31,318 nt of DNA from Promethearchaeota archaeon (lineage in GTDB: Archaea; Asgardarchaeota; Lokiarchaeia; Sigyniarchaeales; SOKP01). Below the pieces are notes generated by a model. The model did not search any database and was not told the origin of the DNA. It was given only the letters and a program-made list of their open reading frames with translations. Positions 19,812 through 21,802 of the stretch are shown here, one piece after another. The position numbers and the translations under genes were made by a program. The number at the start of each line of letters is the position of its first letter. Position 1 is the stretch's first letter. The stretch is taken from the NCBI GenBank assembly GCA_048938855.1, contig JBHLLT010000031.1:1-31318 (forward strand), given 5' to 3'.

Positions 19812-20693
19812 ATGGTTGATGTTACCACTATTGTGGAAGAAATACAAGGAAAATATAAAATAATTGGTAGAACGGAAGAGTTAAGAAAGATCGTTTTAGC
19901 TCATGCAGTTGGTAAGAATATTTTATTGGAGGGAAACGTTGGAGTAGGTAAAACAACATTAGCTAGAGCTATTGCTGATTATTATAGTTCTGAAGATTCA
20001 AATTTCTATAGAGTAGACTGTAGTGAAGAACTACTTCCTCATAATCTTGTAGGATACTTTGAGCCCCCTTTAGTAATTGCAAAAGGTTATATTGAAGAAT
20101 CATATAAATATGGGCCGTTAGCATTAGCAATGATGAATGGTGGGTGTTTATTTATAAATGAAATAAATCGGATGCCAGAAAGTACTCAAAATTCATTATT
20201 AACATCTTTGGATGAAGGTATTCTTGAAATTCCAAAATTAAAAACAATAAAAGCTCACAAAAATTTCTTTGTTGTAGCAACTCAAAATCCAGCCGCTCAT
20301 GTAGGAGTAACAGTGTTAGGTGAAGCATTAAAAGATAGATTTATTTGGATTAATTTGGATTATCAAAGTCCAGAAGAAGAAATTTTAATAATAAAACAAG
20401 AAGCTCAATTGAACAGTGGAAATGCTAATAAAATAGCAACTATCTCTCAAAATATCACTCAAATAACAAGAGATAGTACGTCCATTCGCAGAGGTAGTTC
20501 TGTCAGAGGAGCCATAGACTTAGCTACCCTATTAAATCAGTATGATAATGACAATAGTAGTAAGAATTGGGTTGAAGCTGCTGTGATGGCATTGTATAAT
20601 AAAATTGAACTTGAAGACGGATTGACACAATCCAAAAAAGAAGTCATTACTAACATTGTTTTGACCGTTTTAAACAATTCGGATTTTCAATAG
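19812..20693 (+). CDS. MoxR-family AAA+ ATPase
   Basis: Walker A GNVGVGKT, Walker B variant LFINEINR, ATQNP, EALKDRF, SVRG sensor II. Confidence 0.92.
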   Translation: MVDVTTIVEEIQGKYKIIGRTEELRKIVLAHAVGKNILLEGNVGVGKTTLARAIADYYSSEDSNFYRVDCSEELLPHNLVGYFEPPLVIAKGYIEESYKYGPLALAMMNGGCLFINEINRMPESTQNSLLTSLDEGILEIPKLKTIKAHKNFFVVATQNPAAHVGVTVLGEALKDRFIWINLDYQSPEEEILIIKQEAQLNSGNANKIATISQNITQITRDSTSIRRGSSVRGAIDLATLLNQYDNDNSSKNWVEAAVMALYNKIELEDGLTQSKKEVITNIVLTVLNNSDFQ

Positions 20694-21802
20694 TCAATGA
20701 TTTCTCTGAGGATGATTCTGAGGAGATTGAGAAAAGGCTGCATGTTAGACTTACTGATAGTCGCCCAGATAAGGAAATATTAGAGTATGAAATTATTAGG
20801 AAGAAACGGAAAAAACCTGATTATTATAAACATTTAGCAAATACCTTGGACTATAAACAAATAAAAGAATTAGCATATTTGGCAATACAGTACAAAAACA
20901 TTGAAGCTCTAATGGGATTACTTAAATCTAATGTATATGCTGCAACTGATGCATTAGATACTGAAGAAGGAATTAAATTCTTTTCAGAAAAAGCTACCGA
21001 AGCAGGTGATTTTATGCCAGAGGTTTATTTCTTTATTCGGCGTCCAATTTCTGAAAAATACAAATCAATTTTTAGGCGTTTAGCACGCCAAAGTATTTTA
21101 AAATTATCTTTAAAAATAACAAGCAAAGGAATAAGAGGACAATTTAAAAAAACTGTTCCTTATTACAAAATAAGTACGCCCGAATTCAGCATTGATGAAA
21201 CTATTCAGCATAATCCTTTAAAAATATTTGAGAAGAATATAAATTATAAAGATATATATGGAATTGAAAGAAAGAGACAAAAAAGGAAAATAGTTTTAAT
21301 ATTAGATACTAGTGGAAGTATGTATGGACGTCTATTATTAAATGCCGCTCTTACAACATCAGTTTTGGCTTATAATATGGAGAAAGAAGACTATGCTATT
21401 ATATTATTTAATTCTAATGTGATGGTTATGAAAAAAATTAATCAGAAAAAACCTATAGCTACGATTATAGATGATATACTGGATTCTGAAGCATCAGGAT
21501 TTACCAATATATCTCTCGGTTTGGAAAAGGGCTTAAAAGAATTAAATAAAATGAAGGATAATAGAAAAAATCGGTTTGGCATTTTAATTACTGATGGGAA
21601 TTACAATCGAGGAGAAGACCCAATTACTTTAGCAAAAACTTTTCCAAAACTTCATGTTATAGGAATGCCTGCTGAAAATGATGCGGATCAAGGCATAGAG
21701 ACGTGTCGAGAAATTGCCAATGCAGGAAGTGGAAAATTCTATGCTGTAAATGATTACAAAGAAATTCCACGAGCCTTAATAGAACTTCTCTCTCAAACAT
21801 GA
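20690..21802 (+). CDS. VWA (MIDAS) domain protein; 5' end uncertain (frame open from 20654; possible ATA start at 20690, TTG at 20846, or entry by -1 frameshift from the AAA gene)
   Basis: LILDTSGSM, GFTNIS and LITDG MIDAS residues. The frame upstream of 20846 continues as protein-like IVNDFSEDDSEEIEKRLHVRLTDSRPDKEILEYEIIRKKRKKPDYYKHLANT. Confidence 0.85.
   Translation: MVNDFSEDDSEEIEKRLHVRLTDSRPDKEILEYEIIRKKRKKPDYYKHLANTLDYKQIKELAYLAIQYKNIEALMGLLKSNVYAATDALDTEEGIKFFSEKATEAGDFMPEVYFFIRRPISEKYKSIFRRLARQSILKLSLKITSKGIRGQFKKTVPYYKISTPEFSIDETIQHNPLKIFEKNINYKDIYGIERKRQKRKIVLILDTSGSMYGRLLLNAALTTSVLAYNMEKEDYAIILFNSNVMVMKKINQKKPIATIIDDILDSEASGFTNISLGLEKGLKELNKMKDNRKNRFGILITDGNYNRGEDPITLAKTFPKLHVIGMPAENDADQGIETCREIANAGSGKFYAVNDYKEIPRALIELLSQT

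Follow-up and report, generated by a model that had tools for sequence, protein, structure and literature searches.

In the fs-chlD genes of magnesium and cobalt chelatases, a -1 frameshift near the end of the AAA+ open reading frame (ORF) has been proposed to yield an AAA-only and an AAA-linker-VWA subunit (Antonov et al. 2013, PMC3711429; Kuznetsov et al. 2022, PMC9227772; Atkins et al. 2016, PMC5009743), with A_AAA_AAR or a poly-A run as the shift site (PMC5009743, PMC3711429). MoxR-class AAA+ ATPases with a VWA/MIDAS partner encoded by an adjacent gene are known from the NorQ/NorD, CbbQ/CbbO and RavA/ViaA systems (PMC9976466, PMC13036017). Cellular programmed frameshifting is scarcely documented in archaea: fucA1 of Saccharolobus solfataricus is an experimentally shown cellular -1 frameshift, and a 2021 review of archaeal recoding counts fucA1 as the only shown case and names the methanogen chelatase genes as a suggested one (PMC8211752). 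Here we analyse a window of 31,318 nucleotides (nt) and about 30% G+C from a Promethearchaeota archaeon (assembly GCA_048938855.1, contig JBHLLT010000031.1), in which the ORF of a MoxR/GvpN-like AAA+ ATPase runs into an overlapping frame that encodes a VWA domain. The original prediction for this locus, made from the DNA letters alone, was a programmed -1 frameshift producing both the ATPase and an AAA-VWA fusion. Comparison of orthologous loci makes it likely that a conserved programmed -1 frameshift, placed at a U-run next to the ATPase stop codon, gives ATPase and ATPase-VWA proteins from one recoded gene, and the best reading of the sampled sequences extends this recoding to most of the Promethearchaeota. 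The features on which the analysis centres are the following.

19812 to 20693, plus strand: zero-frame ORF of the MoxR/GvpN-like AAA+ ATPase, 293 amino acids (aa), the short product, recognised by Pfam domains and by motif conservation in 121 orthologues.

20654 to 20693, plus strand: overlap of the two frames as read from the sequence, 40 nt in the window; in most close relatives the -1 frame is open over the last 16 nt only.

20669 to 20675, plus strand: T_TTA_AAC heptamer in the zero-frame phase (TTA 20670, AAC 20673), the shift site named in the original prediction; usable in the window's genome, not conserved.

20681 to 20687, plus strand: G_GAU_UUU, the proposed conserved shift site.

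20687 to 21802, plus strand: -1 frame after the shift, from the TCA at 20687-20689, 371 aa plus stop, with an acidic disordered linker, a helical domain and a VWA domain (frame reading and AlphaFold model).

The ATPase ORF ends with a TAG at 20691-20693. The VWA frame is -1 relative to it, is closed upstream by a TAA at 20651-20653, and remains open from 20654 to a TGA at 21800-21802; its first ATG, GTG or TTG is the TTG at 20846. The original prediction had read these facts correctly, together with the phase of the heptamer. Orthologous loci were drawn from relatives of the window, from 301 evenly drawn genomes of the phylum, from selected distant families and from named assemblies, and 125 distinct junctions were left once duplicates had been removed. 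The ATPase-VWA gene was matched at E <= 1e-30 in 182 of the 301 evenly drawn genomes, and the close relatives of the locus were Promethearchaeota (Asgard) genomes from sediments. No RNA data set was listed as containing the locus.

The -1 phase was kept in 122 of the 125 junctions, with overlaps of 10-82 nt, and no start codon was conserved across the 125. In the VWA frame, the first canonical start was found before the end of the stop codon in 11 junctions, up to 30 nt after it in 6, 31-100 nt after it in 46 and more than 100 nt after it in 62, and its position shifted even within the genus. The amino-acid sequence of the orthologues was conserved from the junction onward. Over the first 48 codons after the stop, pairwise differences among 40 genus-level sequences were 0.094, 0.059 and 0.316 at codon positions 1, 2 and 3, indicating that the apparent gap between the two genes evolves as translated -1-frame sequence, in line with its earlier description as coding-like. 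Judged from these alignments, both frames at the junction are under purifying selection, and the start-less overlapping -1 arrangement exceeds chance.

The overlap contains a shared slip-prone element. In 121 of the 122 -1 junctions, the open -1 window includes a zero-frame UUU or UUC whose -1 codon is also UUU, in the contexts GGAU_UUU (81 junctions), AGAU_UUU (18), AAAU_UUU (8) and GGGU_UUU (3). The U-run sits 0-2 codons before the stop; in the window, G_GAU_UUU is followed by one sense codon (CAA) and then by the stop. T-runs of at least four within 15 nt of the stop were found in 122 of the 125 junctions, the other three having A_AAT_TTC or A_AAC_CCT, and 28 junctions of other lineages carry canonical in-phase heptamers at the same place (such as T_TTT_TTC, T_TTT_TTA, A_AAT_TTT or G_GGT_TTT). 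Before the ATPase stop the -1 frame is open over 16 nt in most genus-level junctions, narrowing to 13 nt in several loci and to 10 nt in a single locus. Since -1-frame stops thus lie 10-16 nt before the ATPase stop, the U-run is the only possible shift site in that window.

In the proposed mechanism, most ribosomes would read the ATPase ORF to the TAG at 20691, giving the 293-aa protein, and a fraction would move one base back at the U-run in G_GAU_UUU, with a single codon left before the stop. The tRNA-Phe on UUU (20685-20687) would re-pair with UUU (20684-20686), and the slipped ribosomes would go on in the -1 frame through the acidic linker, the helical domain and the VWA/MIDAS domain, to give a predicted fusion of 663 aa (292 + 371), with the size and domain order that had been foreseen (about 663 aa; AAA, acidic linker, VWA). 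The fusion junction would read ...LNNSDF/SIVNDFSEDD... (slash, point of the shift), with EVITNIVLTVLNNSDFSIVNDFSEDDSEEIEK as the tryptic junction peptide. The junction peptide first proposed was ...TVLKQFGFSIV; the shift window common to the orthologues predicts ...NNSDF/SIVNDFSEDD instead, because it holds only G_GAU_UUU. We infer both the ribosomal nature and the efficiency of the shift. Short and long forms may meet in one AAA+ ring, with the shift rate setting the number of VWA arms per ring, as proposed for ChlI/ChlD.

A search for naturally fused homologues, which the original prediction had suggested as a check, found 98 longer ATPase homologues, most of them of 600-716 aa with AAA_5 and VWA domains and 45-52% identity over nearly the whole ATPase. 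These came from Njordarchaeales, Bathyarchaeia, Nitrososphaerales and one Promethearchaeota genome, and were colinear through the junction with the conceptual frameshift products (...DF/F..., ...DY/S...), indicating that the fused architecture is a normal, functional form of the protein. In Escherichia coli dnaX, frameshifting gives tau and gamma, two forms of one AAA+ protein found in one ring complex. Of six fused genes read at the DNA level, four (L090, L092, L093 and L095) have a T6-T7 run at the junction with a -1-frame stop 1-4 codons later, and two (L091 and L094) have no T-run there; the four cases, all in AT-rich DNA, hint that the same slip might yield a short form from some fused genes, in the manner of dnaX. 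As a separate observation, in L090, L092 and L095, three contigs of Njordarchaeales type, the fused gene is located directly after a CDC48 gene and precedes the genes for RNA polymerase subunit L and an EAP30 (ESCRT-II-like) protein.

Conservation at the RNA level was also found around the junction, where two further features were defined.

20688 to 20733, plus strand: highly conserved nucleotides 3' of the slip site, synonymous sites included.

20699 to 20730: possible GA/stem/AUU/GA element, a weak candidate, formed by GA at 20699-20700, a 6-base-pair (bp) stem of 20701-20706 with 20720-20725, AUU at 20726-20728 and GA at 20729-20730.

Between -15 and +14 nt of the junction, identity within the window's family is 96-99%, including at synonymous sites. 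In this family TCG accounts for 38 of the 52 Ser codons preceding GAU (background 0.054), and rare codons are fixed past the stop, with ATC in 69 of 81 (background 0.17) and TTC in 70 of 81 (background 0.24). On these counts, synonymous sites around the junction are constrained. The 40 nt past the U-run had a median folding energy of -8.4 kcal/mol in the window's family and -9.4 kcal/mol in other lineages, versus -2.6 and -3.4 kcal/mol, respectively, past other T-runs of the same loci, a comparison of related sequences in which independence is overstated. The stem proposed originally, TTTTCAAT (20684-20691) with ATTGAGAA (20726-20733), can indeed pair, and RNAalifold chose the same stem in 44 relatives of the window's family; its energy was -7 kcal/mol, no compensatory change was seen in it, and it includes the slip site itself. 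Hand-built kink-turn pairings in the window's family all had mismatches or unvarying columns. Rfam gave nothing significant, the best relevant hit being the CD-box snoRNA model snoZ119 at 20684-20733 (16.7 bits, gathering threshold 70, E 2.4); this weak match spans exactly the originally proposed stem, plus AAUGA ... CUGA boxes between the stem arms. The stop codon close by and the conserved nucleotides that follow it are the candidate stimulators in the window's family.

In distant lineages, 20 of 44 junctions had a hairpin of 5-10 bp starting 6-11 nt (mode 8) past the U-run, whose stem pairs vary by lineage (GC, AT, TA or CG at the same positions). GA lies directly 5' of the stem and NNN-GA directly 3' of it, this being GAU-GA in 17. 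The whole pattern, GA-stem-loop-stem-NNN-GA, was found in 45% of distant junctions versus 4% of control windows, with the caveat that GAUGA is also an Asp-Asp/Glu codon pair. A kink-turn has a canonical stem, a 3-nt bulge, tandem sheared G.A pairs and a non-canonical stem, and is bound by L7Ae. The hairpins resemble kink-turn and box C/D motifs in their flanking GA and NNN-GA, a likeness of sequence pattern, and differ from them in that the non-canonical stem is weak, the GAUGA encodes acidic residues and the window's family is without the hairpin. We regard the kink-turn-like element at distant junctions as a good lead, not a finding. In the family with U_UUU_UUC followed by the stop (L051-L054, L084 and L088), a G-rich tract (for example GAGGGGGGGG or GAGGGAGGAG) lies 3-6 nt past the stop in place of the GA-flanked hairpin; it could be another kind of stimulator.

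Several points weigh against a frameshift at the U-run. The sampled genomes are related, so the counts overstate independence. G_GAU_UUU is not a canonical X_XXY_YYZ heptamer and re-pairing of the P-site tRNA-Asp would be imperfect, the G preceding GAU presumably letting this tRNA hold two of three pairs after the slip. No covariation supported any downstream structure in the 44 sequences of the window's family analysed with RNAalifold, and the window has CAAUGA where its relatives have CGAUGA, which weakens a C/D-box-like kink-turn reading there. Ordinary coupled genes, too, most often overlap in the -1 relation (ATGA type). Finally, one family (L075, L076 and L089) has its VWA gene in the +1 frame, where an ATG is conserved 10-13 nt past the stop, a two-gene arrangement showing that a separate VWA protein can suffice. 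The ATPase of these three loci still ends in ...KFFR.. on a T6 run. As for +1 frameshifting on their UUU_UUU_CGG, this was rejected, given the conserved in-frame ATG.

Two of these points, the coupled-gene overlap and the family with its own ATG, also count for the alternative that fares best, namely two ordinary genes, with the VWA protein starting separately at a non-canonical codon (the ATA at 20690, or an adjacent ATC or GTC) or by termination-reinitiation. The codon overlapping the stop, for which the ATA start had originally been offered as an equally simple explanation, is ATA in 75 of the 122 -1 junctions and TTG, as part of TTGA, in 5, as such a start would have it; however, it differs from ATA in 47, being TTA (18), CTA (12), GTA (11) or CTG (1) in 42 of them. 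Within one family it alternates among TTG, CTA and TTA, all synonymous Leu codons, and TTG overlapping TGA was rejected as a start on the grounds that the same position is CTA or TTA within that family. The codon between UUU and the stop is constantly Ser in the -1 frame (TCA, TCG, TCC or TCT), whereas the zero-frame residue varies among Gln, His, Arg, Pro and Leu, which argues for selection on the -1 reading upstream of the stop. The window's family showed no Shine-Dalgarno-like sequence ahead of the junction, and it is the frameshift product with which the in-frame fusions are colinear. A separate start is, in our view, improbable.

Frameshifting at the U-run also has to be weighed against a shift in the window at the canonical heptamer T_TTA_AAC, alone or together with the U-run. 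This heptamer is canonical and in phase, and lies where the -1 frame is open from 20654. Nevertheless, it was present in only 2 of 39 genus-level junctions, and in 33 of the 39 a -1-frame stop directly follows its position, so that a shift there would merely truncate the protein; the conserved nucleotides, the rare codons and the spacing are all centred on the U-run. Neither the heptamer nor the originally proposed stem exceeds what chance would give. The heptamer is therefore not the conserved signal, and its use in the window is quite improbable, more so than a separate start.

Scarcely different in standing, and slightly the less probable, is slippage of the RNA polymerase on the T-run, adding a base, by which a share of the mRNAs would carry an in-frame fusion. 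The conserved element is indeed a homopolymer, reaching T6-T8 in some lineages, but the run has only 4 T in 90 of the 125 junctions, and known slippage tracts are far longer. Poly-A runs in chlD were noted to correlate with efficiency (PMC3711429), a point in its favour; the conserved downstream hairpins at 6-11 nt, in turn, fit ribosomal stimulation.

A broken gene or an assembly error, for which nothing more than the frame break itself can be cited, can practically be dismissed, given the same arrangement in 122 distinct junctions of many genomes and families, purifying selection on both frames, and contigs from four studies that cover the junction without an indel. As a side observation, the summed contig depth in two sediment/metagenome runs rose from about 9-21 to 230-530 over 20671-20740 only; numerous short contigs from other strains are collapsed onto this stretch, reflecting its extreme nucleotide conservation. 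The comparison thus strongly supports the core of the original prediction, a programmed -1 frameshift giving ATPase and fusion as in chlD, through the kept -1 phase, the absence of a start codon common to the orthologues, the U-run, the in-frame fusions and the downstream structures in other lineages, whereas the slip site, junction peptide and stem that it named were not sustained.

The ATPase half matched Pfam AAA_5 (74.8 bits) and AAA_3 (68.9 bits), both over the cut-off, and GvpN was its nearest NCBIfam model. Its Walker A is GNVGVGKT. Across 121 orthologues, GxxGxGKT, DRF and SxRG were invariant or nearly so, as in the MoxR class. The Walker B is hhhNE rather than hhhDE (N116-E117, 20157-20162), with the Asn invariant in 121 of 121 orthologues, and the orthologues with this variant keep Walker A, sensor 1, the arginine finger and sensor 2; the Asn-Glu Walker B may alter Mg/ATP handling. 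The chelatase medium-subunit models, BchD-ChlD and cobaltochelatase, scored far below their cut-offs, with 23 bits for TIGR02031 (cut-off 499.55) and 25.9 and 29.5 bits for TIGR02442 (cut-off 779.45). A midasin-like ancestry was considered and rejected, the PDB match at E 1e-37 being an artefact that sums over the repeated midasin AAA modules; the best single midasin module reached 38.6 bits versus 57.7 bits for the bacterial MoxR 2r44.

The VWA half contains the last of the features.

21290 to 21769, plus strand: VWA (MIDAS) domain with an intact DxSxS (DTSGS), Pfam VWA 48.8 bits (cut-off 23.8).

Residues D207, S209 and S211 were invariant across 42 orthologues. In the AlphaFold model of this half (predicted local distance difference test score, pLDDT, 82.7), residues 1-22 are disordered, helices occupy residues 28-144 and the VWA fold follows. 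Foldseek placed BatB and the NorD VWA domain as the best matches, and sequence and profile searches of the PDB gave nothing beyond generic VWA matches. Most genomes of the genus also have one or two paralogous VWA matches with 24-26% identity (e.g., G000:C45:80473-81474), which sit inside open frames of about 830-880 aa. The genes adjacent to the locus, encoding MoeA, an FTR1-like permease, a small GTPase and an LbH protein, are common to close relatives only, and this neighbourhood is not conserved, so that it offers no functional hint.

A more far-reaching reading, which we put forward tentatively and consider rather unlikely as a whole, is that the shift rate would be a built-in stoichiometry device setting the number of VWA arms per AAA+ hexamer, that the two-product outcome would have been re-encoded in at least three ways in Asgard archaea, and that a kink-turn stimulator readable by L7Ae would act in many lineages. 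The three ways would be a short form in frame with the long form by -1 shift; a long form in frame, with the short form possibly arising at a U-run that was kept and a -1 stop close by; and two separate genes. We know of no kink-turn reported as a frameshift stimulator. If true, an L7Ae-read kink-turn would make the proportion of the two products depend on the state of the translation machinery.

If the frameshift at the U-run is real, it would be the broadest archaeal example, with a shift signal across most families of the archaeal phylum nearest to eukaryotes, and hundreds of 'orphan' VWA genes, now annotated with a wrong start or none, would be corrected. The locus would be a clean system in which to study how one AAA+ ring gets a set number of adaptor arms. 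MoxR-type chaperones would also join chlD in drawing both AAA alone and AAA-VWA from a single gene, suggesting a general solution and not a chelatase oddity. No report of the present case was found in the literature on MoxR/VWA systems or Asgard frameshifting, which was covered incompletely. The sequence comparison contributes the refutation of T_TTA_AAC as the conserved site, the bounding of the shift window, the two-gene exception and the count of the hairpin pattern.

What the present gene would share with fucA1 is archaeal -1 frameshifting where two ORFs briefly overlap. The fucA1 site is A_AAA_AAT, is found in a few strains only and restores one enzyme, whereas the present signal extends over the phylum and two useful products would result from it. 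The NorQ/NorD likeness lies in the VWA half, with the NorD VWA domain among its best structural matches; in NorQ/NorD, CbbQ/CbbO and RavA/ViaA, however, the VWA partners are separate proteins with their own starts, and the present ATPase departs from these MoxR-VWA pairs in having NE in place of DE in Walker B. As in dnaX, where these are binding domains, the longer form would carry extra domains, but here the shift would give the longer form, while in dnaX it gives the shorter one.

The closest likeness is to fs-chlD, with two proposed products from one gene, in-frame fused homologues and the usual annotation as two adjacent genes. The fs-chlD genes occur in bacteria and archaea (methanogens and proteobacteria), and the present gene is spread through the Promethearchaeota. 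They differ in the ATPase, which is MoxR/GvpN-like (AAA_5/AAA_3) here and ChlI/BchI in fs-chlD, and in the shift site, which here, on sequence comparison, would be a U-run beside the stop instead of the A_AAA_AAR poly-A of fs-chlD. No chelatase large-subunit gene was found among the immediate neighbours in the window. We therefore file the present gene as one that would work like fs-chlD but is not a member of that family.

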